Source: a virus (taxonomy: Duplodnaviria; Heunggongvirae; Uroviricota; Caudoviricetes; Schitoviridae). Taken from it: a stretch of DNA of 13,110 nt. Both the position numbers and the translations under genes were made by a program. Below the pieces are notes generated by a model, which was not told where the DNA came from, ran no database searches, and saw only the letters and a program-made list of their open reading frames with translations. Location: IMG/VR virus record IMGVR_UViG_3300033155_001073, one strand, 5' to 3'. How positions within the stretch are numbered: the first letter of the stretch is position 1; the number at the start of each line of letters is the position of its first letter. Below, piece by piece: positions 4,647 to 11,985 of this stretch.

Positions 4647-5768
4647 ATGTTACCTCAAGATAGAGCACTTGATCGTACTAAGATAGCTTTAATGACCTCT
4701 GAGTCTGCTTTCTTAGTTGCAATGGCTCTAAGTCTACATCATCATTTTGATGAGAGCGAAGAGACAGCATGCACTAATGGGGTATATGTTAAGTATAACC
4801 CAGACTTCTTCCTTAGTTTGCCTGAGAAGCAACGACTTACTCTGATGGTACACGAAGTATGGCATGTAGCTCTACTTCATAACTATAGAGGTAAAGGGAA
4901 GGACCACGAGAAGTATAACAGAGCAGCAGATTATACAAATAATCAACTTTTAAAAGACGCTGGCTTTGAACCTATACCTGGTTGGTTACAGGATGATAAA
5001 TATAAAGATATGAGTACTAATCAAATCTATAATTTATTACCTGATGAACCACCAAAAAATAATCCTATGGGAGGAGATATAGTAGCTCCCCCTGGAGGTA
5101 CAGAATCAGGACTTGCAGATGCAAAAGCTAAAGTTGAGCAACAAATCATTCAAGCACAAGTACAATCTGAATTAGCTGGGGATGCGCCCGGGTCTTTACC
5201 TGAGGAGCTGCAGCGTCAGATTAAAAAGTTATTGAATCCTGCATTACCATGGGAAGCAATCCTTGGTAGATTTATGCAAGATCAAGCCAAGAATGATTAC
5301 TCATGGGCCAGACCAAATAAGCGGTTTATGCCTGATTTCTATATGCCATCATTACATTCAGAACGATTAGAACATTTAACATTTGCCATTGATACTAGTG
5401 GCTCTGTTACAGATGACGACATGGTCGCAATGTTAACTGAGATTAATTATATCAAAGAAGTTATGCAGCCTAATCGCATGACTATACTTGATTGTGACAC
5501 TATTATACATAATGTATATGATGTTACAGATAGTGATGATATATTAGAATTAGAATTCACTGGAGGAGGAGGCACTAAATGTGCTCCTGTCATTGAATTC
5601 TGTGAAAAGCAGCATACAACAGCGTTGGTGTACTTCACTGATTTATATATGCGTGAGTACCCACATCCCATTACATTTCCATTATTATGGATCGTATACA
5701 ACAATCCCAATAGAACGAAAGTTAATATTGGGGAAATAACACATTATGATATTAAAGGTTCCAAATGA
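4647..5768 (+). CDS. HExxH metallopeptidase-like plus VWA-like domain protein (DUF2201-type; N4 gp25-like)
   Basis: TACTNG, HEVWHVALLH (HExxH), N.AADY..N, MIDAS DTSGS, GGGGT and FTD motifs; AAGGA RBS upstream. Confidence 0.92.
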   Translation: MLPQDRALDRTKIALMTSESAFLVAMALSLHHHFDESEETACTNGVYVKYNPDFFLSLPEKQRLTLMVHEVWHVALLHNYRGKGKDHEKYNRAADYTNNQLLKDAGFEPIPGWLQDDKYKDMSTNQIYNLLPDEPPKNNPMGGDIVAPPGGTESGLADAKAKVEQQIIQAQVQSELAGDAPGSLPEELQRQIKKLLNPALPWEAILGRFMQDQAKNDYSWARPNKRFMPDFYMPSLHSERLEHLTFAIDTSGSVTDDDMVAMLTEINYIKEVMQPNRMTILDCDTIIHNVYDVTDSDDILELEFTGGGGTKCAPVIEFCEKQHTTALVYFTDLYMREYPHPITFPLLWIVYNNPNRTKVNIGEITHYDIKGSK

Positions 5769-6980: not shown

Positions 6981-7192
6981 TGAATAATAATTATTCTTGG
7001 GCAACTACCTCACAAGGATATGTGAGTGTACAACATTTAGGTAAAGAGATAGGGCGAGCTTCTAGTATACAAGAAGCCTTAGCTATTGAAGAACAGCATA
7101 AATTGGAACGTACTAATGAAGCACATCATCTATTCGGCCAACGAAGACAACAAATACGAAATAGCGGTATTAATCAAAGAAAGCGCTTTTAA
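6980..7192 (+). CDS. Hypothetical protein, 70 aa
   Basis: TAATG coupling to the upstream gene. Its 3' 77 nt overlap the polymerase start, so the C-terminal part is uncertain. Confidence 0.55.
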   Translation: MNNNYSWATTSQGYVSVQHLGKEIGRASSIQEALAIEEQHKLERTNEAHHLFGQRRQQIRNSGINQRKRF

Positions 7193-8720
7193 ACATAAAG
7201 CCTTAGTAGAGCACTACTTTGATCCTCTAGCCAAACTAGGTATAAAGCCCGATAGTATGCTTGGATTAAGCTTAACTTACAATGCACAGAATAAAGCTCC
7301 TATATCATTAGTAAATGATAGCTTGGTAACTATTCTAAAAGCCTGTGAGAAATTAGGTATTACAACTTTATTAGTAGCAGATGCTACTTACTTTAAAAAG
7401 TTAACCGGTGAGCGTAAAGCTGAACCACACCACGGATACATTAAACCATGTACTATTACCCAAAAGGTAGAGGTATATGATGAAATTGAAAAAAAATATA
7501 AAACAATTAAAGAACCTTATAAGATAGATATTATCTTATCGGTAAATTATCAGGTACTATTTTATAAACCTGATATGCAAGATAAGTTAATTATGAGTTT
7601 AGAAACTCTAGCTAACCACACTCAAGGGACGCATGTAGATTTAGGTATAGACATCATTCATAGTGCTGAATATCCTAGTAGTCAAGAAGATATTGCATCG
7701 ATATTGACTCGTCTACATGCCTATCCCGAACTAACATGTGATATTGAAGCTTTCTCTTTAATATTTAGTGAAGCAGGTATTGGAACTATCTCATTTGCCT
7801 GGGACCAACACAATGGTATTGCATTCCCAGTTGATTATACTGACCAAATAGGGTCAAGTATGATTGGACATCATGGAGCCCAATGGGATAATTATGAGAT
7901 TAAAACTCTTTTACGTGAATTTTTTGAAACCTATAAAGGTAAATTAACTTATCATGGAGGTACCTATGACATTAAAGTTATCATTTATGAGCTTTTCATG
8001 GAAGACCTGCTTGATAATAAAGGGTTACTGGAAGGACTTGATGTTATGTATCGGTCTATCGACGATACAAAGCTCATTACTTACTTGGCTGTTAATAGTA
8101 CTGCTGGCAATGTACTTGGCTTAAAACCAAACTCATTTGAGTATACTGGTAATTACGCCCAGGACGATATTAAGGATATCCGACGCATACCTTTAGATAA
8201 ATTATTAAAATATAATCTTATTGATAGTTTAGCCACTTGGTATGTAAAAAATAAGAACTTACCAATCATGATAGCTGATCAACAACAGCCAATCTATGAT
8301 GACATAATGATTCCAAGTATGAAACTTATTACTCATATGGAATTAACGGGCATGCCAATGGATCCAGATCACATTGAAGTAATGTGTAAAACATTAGTAG
8401 ATGTGATCATGGCTCAAAAAAGCATACTACATGGGTCCCAACTTATTAAAGATTATGAGTGGGATCGCCAACGTGAAGCTTGTGTAATAGCTAATCTACT
8501 TCTAAAAAGGAAGATACGTCCTATAGAAGACTTCTACGAAAGGTTTAACCCAGCTTCAACCAAGCAAGTACAGGAACTCCTCTATGAGGATGACCAATTC
8601 AATCTACCTGTTATTGATAAAACAGATAGTGGTGCTCCGGCTGTAGGGGCTAAAACCTTAAAGAAACATCTAAACCATTTAATTCATAAACATAACCTAA
8701 CTAAAGAGGAACTACAATAA
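7116..8720 (+). CDS. polA: Family A DNA polymerase, fragment 1 (N-terminal UDG-like region, 3'-5' exonuclease, start of thumb), about 534 aa
   Basis: ATG 7116 follows GGAA. Exo I TCDIEAFSL, Exo II YHGGTYD, Exo III KYNLIDSLATW; MELTGMPMD; FNPASTKQVQELLY; T.SG.P..G.KTLKK. The ORF stops in the thumb with no polymerase motifs A-C. Confidence 0.93.
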   Translation: MKHIIYSANEDNKYEIAVLIKESAFKHKALVEHYFDPLAKLGIKPDSMLGLSLTYNAQNKAPISLVNDSLVTILKACEKLGITTLLVADATYFKKLTGERKAEPHHGYIKPCTITQKVEVYDEIEKKYKTIKEPYKIDIILSVNYQVLFYKPDMQDKLIMSLETLANHTQGTHVDLGIDIIHSAEYPSSQEDIASILTRLHAYPELTCDIEAFSLIFSEAGIGTISFAWDQHNGIAFPVDYTDQIGSSMIGHHGAQWDNYEIKTLLREFFETYKGKLTYHGGTYDIKVIIYELFMEDLLDNKGLLEGLDVMYRSIDDTKLITYLAVNSTAGNVLGLKPNSFEYTGNYAQDDIKDIRRIPLDKLLKYNLIDSLATWYVKNKNLPIMIADQQQPIYDDIMIPSMKLITHMELTGMPMDPDHIEVMCKTLVDVIMAQKSILHGSQLIKDYEWDRQREACVIANLLLKRKIRPIEDFYERFNPASTKQVQELLYEDDQFNLPVIDKTDSGAPAVGAKTLKKHLNHLIHKHNLTKEELQ

Positions 8721-9190
8721 TGTGGGGCACGACAAAAGAACAAGTAACAGATTTAACTATTAAGTTAAACGCTATAACACTTAAGTATGAAAAAGTACTT
8801 AGTGATAATTTAACTAGAGCTGAAGAAGAAGTCGTATCTATTGCACTGAATGCTGATAAAATTACTTCTTTAGAAGAAACTAAAAAAGGTTTAGAGCAAG
8901 ACATCCTGGACCTTAAAGAAGAAAAACGCCGTGAAACTATCAATATTGAACATGCTACTAAGATTATTTTAGAAAAAAATGAAATTGAATTTGCAAAAAA
9001 AGTAGCTGCAGTTAAAGAAGAAAAAGCTACTGAAATCGCTAAAGTTAAAGATGAATATCGAGATAAAATTGAAAAACAATTAGATGCTCGTGGTTCAGAA
9101 ATGAAAGAAATGTATACTGATGTTCTTACTAAACTTACAAGTGTAACAGGTACTGTGCACACTCCTGCGGTACCTATTAAGGAGAGCTAA
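8720..9190 (+). CDS. Coiled-coil protein, 156 aa, lying inside the polymerase locus
   Basis: GAGGA RBS; TAATG overlap with pol fragment 1; long E/K-rich heptad region. Confidence 0.85.
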   Translation: MWGTTKEQVTDLTIKLNAITLKYEKVLSDNLTRAEEEVVSIALNADKITSLEETKKGLEQDILDLKEEKRRETINIEHATKIILEKNEIEFAKKVAAVKEEKATEIAKVKDEYRDKIEKQLDARGSEMKEMYTDVLTKLTSVTGTVHTPAVPIKES

Positions 9191-9191
9191 G

Positions 9192-9566
9192 ATGGCTATA
9201 TCACATATGCCACATACCCCATATGGGATGGCTGATGATCGCATGCGGGGGTATAGATCTCGTACTCCTGAACATGAAGAGTTTTTAAGGTATATTAGAA
9301 ATGAAGGACCTTCTTTTTATAGATTCTTTCAGGAAGAATTTACTACTAGAGATTTTGAAAGACTATCGCCAAATAGCTTCTCTCATGTATTTGCTCATTT
9401 AAAAGACAAATACCATAGCAAGGAGGGTTATATGTATAATGAGCCCCTGATAGATTATCATAAGACCTCTGCTAAAAAAGTACCAAAAACGTGGCTTACA
9501 GAAATGCAGGCTGAAATTAAAGAATGGCTTAAAGATGTTAACACACTTATAGCTAAACCAGTATAA
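9192..9566 (+). CDS. Hypothetical protein, 124 aa, inside the polymerase locus
   Basis: GGAG RBS 7 nt upstream; no recognisable motif. Confidence 0.8.
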   Translation: MAISHMPHTPYGMADDRMRGYRSRTPEHEEFLRYIRNEGPSFYRFFQEEFTTRDFERLSPNSFSHVFAHLKDKYHSKEGYMYNEPLIDYHKTSAKKVPKTWLTEMQAEIKEWLKDVNTLIAKPV

Positions 9567-9581
9567 CCAAGGAAAATAAAT

Positions 9582-10178
9582 ATGAGCTTAATGCTTCGTA
9601 AATCATGTCAAGAAGTGCTTGACAACTATGGGATCTCAGATCTCCATGCATCTATGGATACTTACTTAAAATTATCTATTGTTAGTGAATGTGGAAAACC
9701 ATTCGTAACTATCCAGGGTGTTGAGTTTACTCGACAAATTCCAACTAAATTAGAAATTGATTATGCTACAGAGTTACTTGATAACTTCTTAGCTACACAT
9801 ATTGAGGACATTGCTACTTACCGTAGACGTAAAGCTATCTTTGATCGTCAACCTACTAAACCAGATGATGGTGATGATGCCGAATTCTTTTTACATGGAC
9901 AAAGTCATGGTGATTATCGTAGTGATTTATATGTATCTTGGAAGACAGATTCATTTACTTACCAAGTTAATAAAAAAGACAAACTTCATTTTCATATTGT
10001 TGATGGTCTAACTAAGGAAACAGACATCACTAAAATGATTGCCGGCATGAAGAAACTCAAACATGACAAAAAACAAGTTACTGCTGCCAAGAAGTTTTTG
10101 AAAGGTTGGGTCAAGTATGACGAAGAACGTGTGTTCTTAGTTAAGTTAAAGTCTAAGCTATCATCTTGTAATATTTAA
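9582..10178 (+). CDS. Hypothetical protein, 198 aa, inside the polymerase locus
   Basis: AAGGA RBS; long ORF; no recognisable motif. Confidence 0.85.
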   Translation: MSLMLRKSCQEVLDNYGISDLHASMDTYLKLSIVSECGKPFVTIQGVEFTRQIPTKLEIDYATELLDNFLATHIEDIATYRRRKAIFDRQPTKPDDGDDAEFFLHGQSHGDYRSDLYVSWKTDSFTYQVNKKDKLHFHIVDGLTKETDITKMIAGMKKLKHDKKQVTAAKKFLKGWVKYDEERVFLVKLKSKLSSCNI

Positions 10179-10192
10179 TACCTGGAAGACGT

Positions 10193-10687
10193 ATGAGTAC
10201 CCCTAGATCAGAAATTATACAACAAGCCAAAATACTTAAAGCATTAATTGCATTAAGTGAAGCAGATATCATCTTAAATAACTTTGTTTATGCTTTCATG
10301 AACAAGACTATTGATAAGGGTGATTATGTTAAGTGGCTTCATGGTAATTTCAATTTAGGAGGTACTGTCTCCGGACGATTAAGTAGCTCTAAAGTAAATT
10401 TACAAAATCTACCCAGCTCAGGCTCTAAGTATGCAAAACTAGTAAAAACTGGTTTTGTTGCCCCTGAAGGGTGGATCCTATGTGGTGCTGATTTCTCTTC
10501 ATTAGAAGATAAAATATCTGCACTTACAACTAAAGATCCAAACAAATTAAAGGTATACATGGGCCATGATGTGTATGAATTAAACATTAATGGTACTGTA
10601 CATCAGATCCGAGATGATGCTATAATAGACTTCGATGGTAAACAATACACTGGAGAAGAATTTTATGATACCTATAGCACACTATGA
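10193..10687 (+). CDS. polA: Family A DNA polymerase, fragment 2 (rest of thumb, palm motif A) plus a 42-aa C-terminal extension
   Basis: GGAAG RBS; LHGNFNLGGTVSGRLSSSKVNLQNLPS, GFVAPEGWILCGADFSSLED (motif A), ALTTKDPNKLKVY. Non-polymerase sequence runs from 10559 to the stop. Confidence 0.93.
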   Translation: MSTPRSEIIQQAKILKALIALSEADIILNNFVYAFMNKTIDKGDYVKWLHGNFNLGGTVSGRLSSSKVNLQNLPSSGSKYAKLVKTGFVAPEGWILCGADFSSLEDKISALTTKDPNKLKVYMGHDVYELNINGTVHQIRDDAIIDFDGKQYTGEEFYDTYSTL

Positions 10688-11204
10688 AATACGTTATTTA
10701 ATTAATAATAAAGGTGAAATATTTAACCTTGCAAATAATAAATATAAGAAATTAAGTAAACAATCTACTGGGTATCTAACTGTAGCTTTAGCTGATGGAA
10801 AAGGTAAACATAAAACCTATTCTGTACATATATTAGTAGCAAAACATTTTATACCTAATCCATATAATCATCCACTAGTTAATCATAAAGATGGAGATAA
10901 AACTAATCCTGACTGGGAAAATTTAGAATGGTGTGATTATGAATACAATGCACAACATGCATTGAGAACAGGGTTACGTCCTGGTTATATGTCAGCTAGT
11001 AATAAAGAACTTTATCTACAAGAAGTCTTGTCAGGTAAACAAGTCAAAGATATTGCAGAAGAAATCAACCGTAGACCAGAAACTTTACATAAAATGTTGC
11101 GTGAAACCGCTAAACGACTTAACTTACATGATGAATGGAAGTTAGTAATGAAAGAGAATCGTAAAAATGCAGCAATTCGCAACCTTGAAAAGATCAACAA
11201 TTAG
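10665..11204 (+). CDS. HNH homing endonuclease, NUMOD4/I-HmuI-like, inserted in the polymerase gene, about 179 aa
   Basis: GGAG at 10652-10655 precedes ATG 10665. Motifs: HYE.RY.INNKGEI, GYL.V.L, YSVHILVAKHFIPNP, VNHKDGDKTN..WENLEWC....N.QHA...GL. C-terminal HTH-like VKDIAEEINRRPETL. Confidence 0.92.
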   Translation: MIPIAHYEIRYLINNKGEIFNLANNKYKKLSKQSTGYLTVALADGKGKHKTYSVHILVAKHFIPNPYNHPLVNHKDGDKTNPDWENLEWCDYEYNAQHALRTGLRPGYMSASNKELYLQEVLSGKQVKDIAEEINRRPETLHKMLRETAKRLNLHDEWKLVMKENRKNAAIRNLEKINN

Positions 11205-11985
11205 CATTCCTAAAGATGCTATAATAACAATTAAAAAGGTAGGACAAACAGATGGATATGATGGACACTGCCTCAGGGCATATTCGTATTTTCCTGATAA
11301 AATGTCAGGTATCGTGGATACTGTTTCGAGCATCAATTCCATCGAAACAAGATATCCTGAGTTACGCCAGGACTCTAAAGCACCGACATTTCTATTAACC
11401 TATCAAGGTACATACCATGGGTTAATGAATAATGTAGGCTTATCAAAAAAAGTAGCCCAGGCTATTGAAAAAGCCTACCATGAAATGTATGTTGTATCCG
11501 ATGAATGGGTAGCAGATAAACTAAAACAAGCATCAAAAGATGGGTATGTCACTGTAGCCTTTGGCTTACGGGTAAGAACTCCTATCTTGAAACAAACTAT
11601 ACTAAACAACTCTAAGACTCCTTATGAAGCCCAGGCTGAAGGGAGAACTGCAGGTAACGCATTAGGACAATCATATGGACTTCTCAACAACCGCTCTGGT
11701 ATCGATTTTCATCAGCGTCTTATGGATTCTGTTCATAAATTGGATATCAAACCTATAGCACACATCCATGATGCCCAATACTTCTTAGTAAGGAAGGATG
11801 TAGCTGTACTTAAATGGTTTAACGACAACTTAGTCGAAACTATGAAGTGGCAGAACCTTCCAGAGATACAACACCCTACAGTGAAGTTAGGTGGTAATGT
11901 AGAGGTATACTGGCCTAATTGGGCCACTAAAACTGTACTTCCAAATAACGCAAGTGAAGATGAAATAAGGAAACTATTCAAATGA
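11167..11985 (+). CDS. polA: Family A DNA polymerase, fragment 3 (fingers, motifs B and C) with a 27-aa N-terminal extension
   Basis: Polymerase sequence resumes at TDGYDGHCLRAYSYF (11248). Motif B RQDSKAPTFLLTYQG, GYVTVAFGLRVRTP, AEGRTAGNALGQSYG, motif C HIHDAQYF. Confidence 0.94.
   Translation: MQQFATLKRSTISIPKDAIITIKKVGQTDGYDGHCLRAYSYFPDKMSGIVDTVSSINSIETRYPELRQDSKAPTFLLTYQGTYHGLMNNVGLSKKVAQAIEKAYHEMYVVSDEWVADKLKQASKDGYVTVAFGLRVRTPILKQTILNNSKTPYEAQAEGRTAGNALGQSYGLLNNRSGIDFHQRLMDSVHKLDIKPIAHIHDAQYFLVRKDVAVLKWFNDNLVETMKWQNLPEIQHPTVKLGGNVEVYWPNWATKTVLPNNASEDEIRKLFK

Follow-up and report, generated by a model that had tools for sequence, protein, structure and literature searches.

A mobile HNH endonuclease cassette, with a tail and a leader, in the split family-A DNA polymerase gene of N4-like viruses

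The DNA analyzed in this study (hereafter the window, 13,110 nucleotides) covers the opening 13.1 kb of an N4-like (Schitoviridae-type) viral genome, which is complete, measures 77 kb and has terminal repeats (IMG/VR record IMGVR_UViG_3300033155_001073). Its family-A DNA polymerase gene (polA) is interrupted between motifs A and B by an insert of 689 nucleotides (nt), which contains the gene of an HNH homing endonuclease and adds a C-terminal tail of 42 amino acids (aa) to the upstream polymerase piece and an N-terminal leader of 27 aa to the downstream one. This locus raises the question of how a polymerase is obtained from a gene interrupted in this way, whether by RNA splicing, by protein splicing or as separate chains, and of what the two added peptides do if the chains are separate. 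We favor, with moderate confidence, the reading that the cassette splits polA into polypeptides that are made separately and reassemble non-covalently, with the tail and the leader serving as a bracket.

The insert is mobile as one unit

Between positions 10193 and 11985, three open reading frames (ORFs) lie on the same strand in three different frames: polymerase fragment 2 (10193-10687, 164 aa), the HNH gene (10635/10665-11204) and polymerase fragment 3 (11167-11985, 272 aa). The Pfam family DNA_pol_A was matched at positions 73-188 in fragment 2 and at positions 200-361 in fragment 3. In an alignment with N4 gp39 and Erwinia phage S6 gp063, both of which read uninterrupted KLKVYTDGYDGH at the split site, polymerase homology ends at KDPNKLKVY (fragment 2 residue 122, nt 10558) and restarts at TDGYDGH (fragment 3 residue 28, nt 11248), leaving the 689 nt of window positions 10559-11247 as the insert. 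A tblastn search of 50,697 phage records gave the same picture: among the matches listed, fragment 3 was matched from residue 28 onward by all intact N4-like polymerases, and its residues 1-27 were matched by split polymerases only. The catalytic Asp/Glu, Lys/Tyr and His-Asp residues, spread over the fragments, together with the Pfam and PHROG matches identify the enzyme as a family-A (N4 gp39-like) polymerase. Split copies show no variation in motifs A, B and C, including D100 and E105 of fragment 2 and R67, K71, Y79, G81, H201 and D202 of fragment 3.

The HNH gene begins 106 nt into the insert, with an ATG at 10665, and its stop at 11204 is followed by 43 nt before polymerase homology resumes. 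Its overlap is 23 nt with fragment 2 and 38 nt with fragment 3; the stop codon of the tail falls 20 nt past the HNH start, and a Shine-Dalgarno (SD)-like sequence and the conserved start of fragment 3 are located inside the 3' end of the HNH gene. The encoded protein is I-HmuI-like, with the N-terminal DNA-binding motif NUMOD4, an HNH_3 domain and a C-terminal GerE-like helix-turn-helix (HTH); its profile matches PDB entry 1u3e (I-HmuI) with E=1.6e-19, and the pattern NHKDG...NLEW...N..H is invariant in the alignment (NHKDG, NLE, N95 and H98). A reading of the window made beforehand from its letters alone (the sequence-only reading) had placed the break at these two nucleotides, had described KLKVY and TDGYDGH as contiguous in intact N4-like enzymes, had given the lengths of the insert, the tail, the leader and the two HNH flanks, and had called the nuclease I-HmuI-like. 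These observations are confirmed to the base by the alignment with N4 and S6, the tblastn matches listed and the domain searches.

Two close pairs of filled and empty sites were found. N4 and VEc25 represent one species (97-99% nt identity over the polymerase gene), and VEc25 carries, exactly between KVY and GYDGH, a 702-nt block composed of tail, HNH gene and leader in place of 7 nt of N4. The second pair is formed by the window and the metagenomic protein P0052 (locus L102), which is 93% identical to residues 1-122 of fragment 2 and, over its residues 124-367, 91% identical to residues 29-272 of fragment 3, and in which the site is contiguous (KLKVY-E-DGYDGH). Both pairs indicate that tail, HNH gene and leader come and go together, and the insert is thus mobile as one unit. 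Differences between N4 and VEc25 are enriched close to the junction and are synonymous, both on its left (11/130 versus 37/1699, p=3.6e-4) and on its right (3/30 versus 6/714, p=0.004), a pattern that homing with co-conversion, or target recoding, would be expected to leave. The HNH enzyme would nick or cleave the uninterrupted allele, to which the clustered synonymous differences point indirectly.

Cultured phages that carry the cassette belong to at least four genera (Pylas, Pollock, VEc25/PMBT57/Jura and SP5M), and in cultured plaque-forming carriers (Pylas, Pollock, VEc25, SP5M and others) the split polA is the sole polA copy. Among 80 loci with homologues of the HNH gene kept from IMG/VR, the tail module was identified only in L019, which is the same contig as L013, and in L020, which has a diverged tail (41 bits) at a second attachment site described below; both are N4-like polymerases. 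The parts of the cassette and of the polymerase are listed in Table 1.

Table 1. Positions of the polymerase fragments and of the cassette parts in the window
Feature	Position	Strand	Evidence
PolA fragment 1 (exonuclease and start of polymerase domain)	7086..8720	+	phrog_17 DNA polymerase, E=3e-48; weak DNA_pol_A match
PolA fragment 2, polymerase part (122 aa, motif A DFSSLED, end KLKVY)	10193..10558	+	DNA_pol_A 73-188, E=1.5e-14; N4/S6 alignment; 93% identity with P0052
C-terminal tail of fragment 2 (42 aa, cassette-encoded) and stop	10559..10687 (codons 10559-10684)	+	absent from intact polymerases; pN/pS; AlphaFold2
12-nt direct repeat, copy 1, GATGCTATAATA (tail codons DAII)	10616..10627	+	
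Shine-Dalgarno GGAG of the HNH gene, within tail codons (TGEEF)	10652..10655	+	read from the sequence; 9 nt before ATG 10665
I-HmuI-like HNH homing endonuclease gene (179 aa)	10665..11204	+	NUMOD4, HNH_3 and C-terminal HTH-like; phrog_59, E=5e-36
Weak SD-like AAAGAG ahead of the fragment 3 start	11151..11156	+	read from the sequence; AAGGAG in Pylas
N-terminal leader of fragment 3 (27 aa, cassette-encoded)	11167..11247	+	first ~12 codons overlap the HNH 3' end; absent from intact polymerases
12-nt direct repeat, copy 2, GATGCTATAATA (leader codons DAII)	11215..11226	+	
PolA fragment 3, polymerase part (motifs B and C; start TDGYDGH)	11248..11985	+	DNA_pol_A 200-361; 91% identity with P0052; AlphaFold2 pLDDT 88.7

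Several smaller signals were noticed within the cassette. The 12-nt direct repeat is exact, and it is found only in the copy of this window and not in its relatives; because its two copies are codon-aligned in tail and leader, recombination between them would remove the HNH gene and join the two fragments in one frame, with 34 aa inserted. The stretch CATCAGATCCGAGATGATG (10601-10619, codons HQIRDD) is near-invariant, third codon positions included, in cassettes that are otherwise saturated with synonymous changes, and may represent a nucleic-acid signal in addition to a coding constraint. A sigma-70-like TGTACA-18-TATAAT with TG spans 10597-10626, upstream of the HNH start. In a scan of the cassette for sigma-70 promoters and terminators, fewer promoter-like sites were found than in shuffled sequences, and no convincing terminator was found inside.

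Neither an intron nor an intein at the insertion site

I-HmuI-type HNH genes classically reside within group I introns of phage polA, and the insert could accordingly be a group I (or II) intron with an HNH ORF, the polymerase becoming one chain after RNA splicing. The polymerase of Pylas is annotated in RefSeq as a joined coding sequence (CDS) with the note "intron", and an intron has also been suggested for the HNH-split DNA polymerase of the Vibrio N4-like phages JA1/VchO139-I (PMC3670811). A real group I intron with an HNH gene does exist elsewhere in the polymerase of a relative: in locus L013 (2124-2793; also in L014-L016 and L019) and in L100 (1-141), an HNH gene different from the one studied here lies at SSxPNLQNLP between two RF00028 matches that are below the gathering score, and the apparent "tail" at this site of L013 is only 4 residues long. 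Introns and intron-less cassettes thus coexist in one gene.

At the KVY site, however, Rfam searches for group I and II introns gave no match in the window at E<=10 and none in eight related loci at E<=1, that is, in nine loci with the window, and the same permissive scan recovered the L013 intron on both sides of its HNH gene (RF00028, E ~4e-4). The sequence outside the HNH ORF amounts to only 106 and 43 nt, and the 5' flank shows the substitution pattern of a coding sequence read in the polymerase frame and not that of an RNA structure. Over tail codons 1-31, the ratio of nonsynonymous to synonymous differences (pN/pS) is 0.33 in the polymerase frame and 1.1 and 0.9 in the other two frames; third codon positions vary in 26 of these 31 codons, first and second positions in 12-13. 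Judged from these substitutions, the tail is under purifying selection as a protein read in the polymerase frame. This frame is open in every copy examined, and fragment 3 is preceded by a conserved SD sequence and start codon. No intron is found at the insertion site in these nine loci, in agreement with the sequence-only reading, which had seen no intron core, and RNA splicing appears highly improbable. Given the negative Rfam searches, the coding 5' flank and the conserved SD and start codon, both the joined CDS of Pylas in RefSeq and the intron suggestion for the Vibrio phages are probably incorrect at this site.

Split inteins whose halves flank a free-standing endonuclease, reportedly described as "fractured genes" by Dassa et al. 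in 2009, are said to have the gene order of host N-terminal part with tail, endonuclease, and leader with host C-terminal part that is also seen here. Tail and leader might therefore be the halves of a (degenerate) split intein, which would either splice in trans or, as a non-splicing Hint-like remnant, hold the fragments together. A threonine follows the leader in 51 of 52 sequences, the tail profile matches the Aes123 PolB1 split intein 9hth with E=0.046 in three weak stretches (the regions of blocks A, B and F), and the Npu DnaE intein appears at rank 48 of a Foldseek search (38 columns, root-mean-square deviation (rmsd) 2.1 Å). In addition, P0015 (124 aa), a middle piece of a related polymerase that bears at its end the tail of the insertion site studied here, begins with a genuine intein C-terminal motif at the PNLQ site (YDLEIEEDHCYIANDIYVHN followed by S). 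Together with the L013 intron, this protein indicates that an intein, an intron and a tail-bearing cassette all target this enzyme.

Against an intein at the insertion site, the hallmarks of splicing chemistry are absent. The first residue of the tail is variable (M, I, T, A, Q, L or S), with no conserved Cys/Ser nucleophile, and neither the TxxH of block B nor a terminal His-Asn was found, the residue before the threonine being Q, N, S, K or others. The conserved threonine is the polymerase's own residue in TDGYDGH, which counts against an intein. Tail and leader together comprise 69 aa, whereas an intein fold comprises 130-150 aa (PMC11923092). No Pfam intein or Hint match was obtained in the fragments or in 46 tails, only chance-level matches (CBM_5_12 and similar). 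No intein is recognizable at the insertion site, consistent with the sequence-only reading; it is highly improbable that tail and leader are the halves of a split intein, and the resemblance to 9hth and Npu DnaE is a faint lead on origin rather than a sign of membership. Aes123 PolB1 (PMC11923092) resembles the window in gene order, in its beta-rich N- and C-terminal pieces and in the weak profile similarity; unlike it, the window pieces lack catalytic residues and have half the size of the Hint fold, so that no ligation is expected.

Tail, leader and the assembly of the polymerase

A profile of the tail was searched against 1.84 billion representative proteins and retrieved 48 clusters (at 50% identity). 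The match ends within 9 residues of the C-terminus in 47 of these; the exception, P0035, is the tail of locus L100 joined to an HNH remnant. In none of the 48 is the tail inside an intact polymerase, which leaves the scenario of an insertion domain that existed before the HNH gene landed in it, the ordinary insertion that the sequence-only reading had proposed to look for, without support. As that reading had asked, tail and leader are kept among relatives, and they always accompany the split.

Homologous tail modules are attached at two points: site 1, after KLKVY, and site 2, 23 residues downstream after TDGYDGH...MPDI (P0036-39, P0042-44, P0048, L017, L020, L099, L103 and L104). The occurrence of homologous tails at two sites indicates that the tail moves as part of the cassette and did not arise from the polymerase. 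An extension of the tblastn alignment into S6 and phrog_23226 had given the idea that the tail is a diverged duplicate of the polymerase segment TDGYDGH...MPDI; this idea was ruled out by the site-2 copies, which hold the genuine segment as well as a full tail. In L017 (305-1877), the site-2 tail is followed by an HNH region in frame with the C-terminal part of the polymerase and the motif-B region is missing; this locus is probably a deletion derivative or a broken copy. The downstream polymerase of L020 is fragmented.

Such broken downstream pieces (L017 and L020), and the fact that the window is a metagenomic viral contig, could suggest that the interrupted polymerase is a dead gene and that tail and leader are meaningless read-through. 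The sequencing runs listed as holding this sequence are DNA runs with a small share of it, with no RNA run among them. The record is, however, that of a whole genome (77 kb, with terminal repeats), motifs A to C do not vary across split copies, purifying selection acts on the tail as well as on the polymerase parts, and several cultured phages have the same split as their only polA. We consider a dead gene extremely improbable.

In an AlphaFold2 (AF2) model based on a 25-sequence alignment, the tail is the best-predicted part of fragment 2, with a predicted local distance difference test (pLDDT) of 81-94. Strands are predicted at residues 127-132, 135-140, 144-147 and 150-153 and a helix at 154-161, and the tail is thus confidently predicted to form a small four-stranded beta domain with a short helix, which bears out the earlier description of the tail as beta-rich. 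The leader is modeled as an extended chain without secondary structure (pLDDT 43/78/65) and is far less conserved than the tail. More than 50 aligned leaders nonetheless share the pattern ..TLKKSTxxIPxGAxxSIKKVGxT, with I14, P15, I22, G26 and T28 conserved.

In the reading that we propose, a free-standing I-HmuI-like HNH cassette (10559-11247) has interrupted the gene after codon Y122 and before codon T/E123, in the stretch that separates motif A from motif B. The first of its three coding parts, of about 40 codons, extends the upstream polymerase frame and ends 20 nt past the HNH start; the second part is the HNH gene, with its own SD and ATG embedded in codons of the first part; and the third part, of about 27 codons, begins within the 3' end of the HNH gene and continues in the frame of the downstream polymerase piece. 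The polymerase would be made as separate polypeptides, with no RNA or protein splicing, and these may reassemble non-covalently, as the viable cultured phages and the intact motifs suggest. The leader would most likely dock on the tail domain as added strands, so that tail and leader form an appendage of about 70 aa at the surface loop of the cut that would hold the motif-A piece to the motif-B/C piece. A clamping of the fragments by tail and leader is plausible; the putative pairing of HDVYEL with IITIKKVG, put forward in the sequence-only reading, draws no support from the AF2 models, in which the tail is a self-contained unit and the leader is extended.

Two loci with decayed nucleases bear on this proposal. 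In L100 (180-640), the HNH core is deleted and its C-terminal remnant lies after a TGA, and the polymerase gene nevertheless remains in pieces, with a tail whose frame is open and a leader that is shorter (MLEIKRTDTVSIKQIENTP). In L103 (1-1471), sites 1 and 2 are both filled, the second HNH has decayed with loss of its catalytic core, and an 87-aa micro-fragment is built from a leader of 19 aa, some 20 aa of the polymerase (GYDGH...MPDI) and a tail of 47 aa. The split, the tail and the leader thus outlive the HNH gene, which indicates that the extensions are not there for the endonuclease alone, and with only about 20 aa of polymerase in it, incorporation of the L103 micro-fragment is hard to see except via its extensions. 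These two loci, together with the invariance of the catalytic motifs in split copies, speak for extensions that are of service to the polymerase and not to the endonuclease.

Several points weigh against a bracket. The models are monomeric, and the tail folds confidently in them without the leader, so that another role is possible. The leader is more variable than the enzyme (entropy 1.88 bits versus 1.2-1.4 for the polymerase), its part free of HNH overlap is only 17-52% identical between cassette types, and site-2 leaders do not show a visible site-1 leader motif. The overlapping genes also impose constraints of their own, the HNH frame on the first 12 leader codons and HNH signals on the tail part TGEEFYD. 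The link to the split topoisomerase of phage T4 (gp39/gp60), considered in the next section, is weak as well: the structural match has E=0.86, a first-look search of the whole T4 genome with the tail profile found nothing, the gp39 tail scores 4 bits, which is not significant against an unbiased background of 10,558 ORFs, and the leader profile shows no similarity to the gp60 N-terminus (score -1.0, half of the shuffles being higher).

A different account would keep the split gene as described and give tail and leader no part in association, the fragments joining through their native palm-fingers interface. The tail would then be an autonomous domain, for stability of the new C-terminus, for binding to DNA or the replisome, or for expression or targeting of the HNH enzyme, and the leader would be a start codon and a linker. 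A tail that is predicted to fold alone with high confidence and a leader that is unstructured and poorly conserved fit such an account; the placement of the HNH SD and ATG in tail codons, with the tail stop 20 nt after the HNH start, is typical of translational coupling (PMC2988022), and the comparable insertion in T4 has little effect on enzyme activity (PMC11461880). However, the hydrophobic alternation and the IPxGA turn conserved in more than 50 leaders point to a structured element, the L103 micro-fragment has little but leader and tail to bind with, and both extensions are retained after HNH decay. We therefore regard joining through the native interface without the extensions as possible but rather unlikely, and continue to favor the bracket.

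The polymerase is also interrupted elsewhere. At 8720-10192 of the window, a second interruption that lacks an HNH gene separates fragment 1, which ends in LNHLIHKHNLTKEELQ, from fragment 2, which starts with MSTPRSEIIQQAK; it contains three ORFs (156, 124 and 198 aa) with no Pfam match and one weak PHROG match (phrog_9415). The polymerase fragments P0024, P0052/L102 and P0101 start at the same point, so that the split between fragments 1 and 2 is recurrent. In P0002, P0004, P0029, P0034, P0040 and P0046, an unrelated leader is followed by about 20 aa of polymerase (VEDRISALTTKDPNKLKVY) and a tail; such small proteins indicate a further split within motif A, between its DFxS and LEDR halves. 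Upstream genes of the window encode an RtcB-like RNA ligase (phrog_1075, 2-1045), a second HNH protein (phrog_99, 2060-2575) and a 373-aa protein of phrog_1314, annotated as an HNH endonuclease (4647-5768). This replication module is rich in selfish nucleases.

Kinship with T4 gp39/gp60 and other split genes

Bonocora et al. are said to have described in 2011 a T4 mobA cassette that splits the large subunit of topoisomerase II into gp39 and gp60. Free-standing homing endonucleases are known to split genes into reassembling pieces in Aeh1 (nrdA/mobE), Aeromonas phage 25 (gene 43, as 43A/43B) and T4 (gene 39/60), and the question of how such pieces assemble has been raised (PMC2988022). Cryo-electron microscopy of the T4 enzyme has revealed that the C-terminus of gp39 and the N-terminus of gp60 form a TOPRIM insertion of about 70 aa, absent from T2 and T6, which appears as a surface "pendant" and was interpreted as an assembly chaperone or bracket; it hardly affects the activity of the enzyme (PMC11461880; structures 8yo3/8yo4).

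The T4 mobA cassette and the window share a free-standing HNH gene within the gene of an essential replication enzyme that close relatives have uninterrupted, C- and N-terminal extensions of about 70 aa in total (69 in the window) that are absent from uninterrupted homologues, and the lack of both an intron and an intein. They differ in the host, which is a topoisomerase in T4 and a family-A polymerase here, and in the nuclease, the T4 mobA remnant belonging to PF01844 and the window enzyme combining HNH_3 with NUMOD4. The window also has no 50-nt translational bypass, its three ORFs overlapping instead; ORF overlaps of the translational-coupling type have been described for T4 endonucleases (PMC2988022). 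The polymerase cassette is far more widespread and diverse, with 48 clusters (50% identity) at two sites, whereas a query with the gp39 tail found one cluster.

The top PDB match of the AF2 model in Foldseek is T4 8yo3_C (37 columns, rmsd 2.1 Å, probability 0.75, E=0.86). The T4 gp39 tail (FTFELNGDTIIVNENDEVQINGKWITVGEL) aligns without gaps to the tail of the window, and in a targeted test against the tail profile it scored above all composition-matched shuffles (0 of 2000 reached its score). A resemblance of the leader to the gp60 N-terminus seen by eye was dropped, as shuffles outscored it. We conclude that the window element is of the same kind as the T4 mobA cassette, in another host gene and with another endonuclease; common descent of the two tails is possible on this sequence comparison. 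A "neither-intron-nor-intein strategy", as proposed in the sequence-only reading, is not new, such a strategy being already published for T4 gp39/gp60 (PMC11461880) and for others (PMC2988022), and the interpretation given there is, as a whole, partly supported.

Among the predicted structures of the ESM Atlas, the nearest to residues 121-164 come from pieces of viral GyrB-like topoisomerases (502 aa), from B12-dependent ribonucleotide reductases and from an AAA_30/UvrD helicase of viral origin, among others. These putative matches extend over some 40 residues, and mobile elements often interrupt proteins of these classes. A fold search of BFVD returned polymerase fragments only. The wide and second-look fold searches with VIA-align mostly followed the model's N-terminal helix and returned no aligned range for 8yo3, and an ESM Atlas search with the gp39-like tail P0169 gave no usable match.

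In Aeh1 nrdA/mobE and phage 25 gene 43, an endonuclease insertion likewise yields two separately translated pieces, and one of these hosts is also a DNA polymerase. Their pieces reassemble to active enzyme (PMC2988022). The host proteins and endonucleases are other ones, and the parts of that account available to us describe no conserved portable tail/leader module (PMC2988022). I-HmuI and I-HmuII of the Bacillus phages SPO1 and SP82 belong to the same endonuclease family and reside in the polA gene of a phage family-A polymerase, as here; unlike the window element, which has translated flanks and no detectable intron RNA, they are located in self-splicing group I introns.

A broader reading, which we put forward tentatively and hold to be doubtful, is that tail and leader constitute a portable split "bracket" independent of endonuclease family and host gene. 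It would have been carried by I-HmuI-like HNH enzymes to two sites of N4-like polymerases, would be related to the T4 mobA extension, may occur in split ribonucleotide reductases and helicases, and possibly descends from a fragment of the Hint fold. If this is true, the bracket would be a third general device, besides introns and inteins, that makes endonuclease insertion into essential genes tolerable, and a natural non-splicing tag for protein-fragment complementation.

The phenomenon itself is real, widespread and mis-annotated, and provides a tractable system for the question of how split enzymes assemble, although the principle is already published for T4; the gp39/gp60 arrangement is not a one-off. 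Databases label such polymerases inconsistently: some entries give a joined CDS with an intron, others two "DNA polymerase" genes with no relation to each other, and others fragments. The evidence indicates that these enzymes consist of several chains and that a mobile cassette has made them so. Should tail and leader indeed keep the pieces together, they would be a compact, naturally selected, non-covalent complementation pair of about 70 aa that tolerates two insertion points and even a cargo of 20 aa (L103), with a possible use in protein engineering, and would bear on the assembly of split enzymes, the question raised in PMC2988022.

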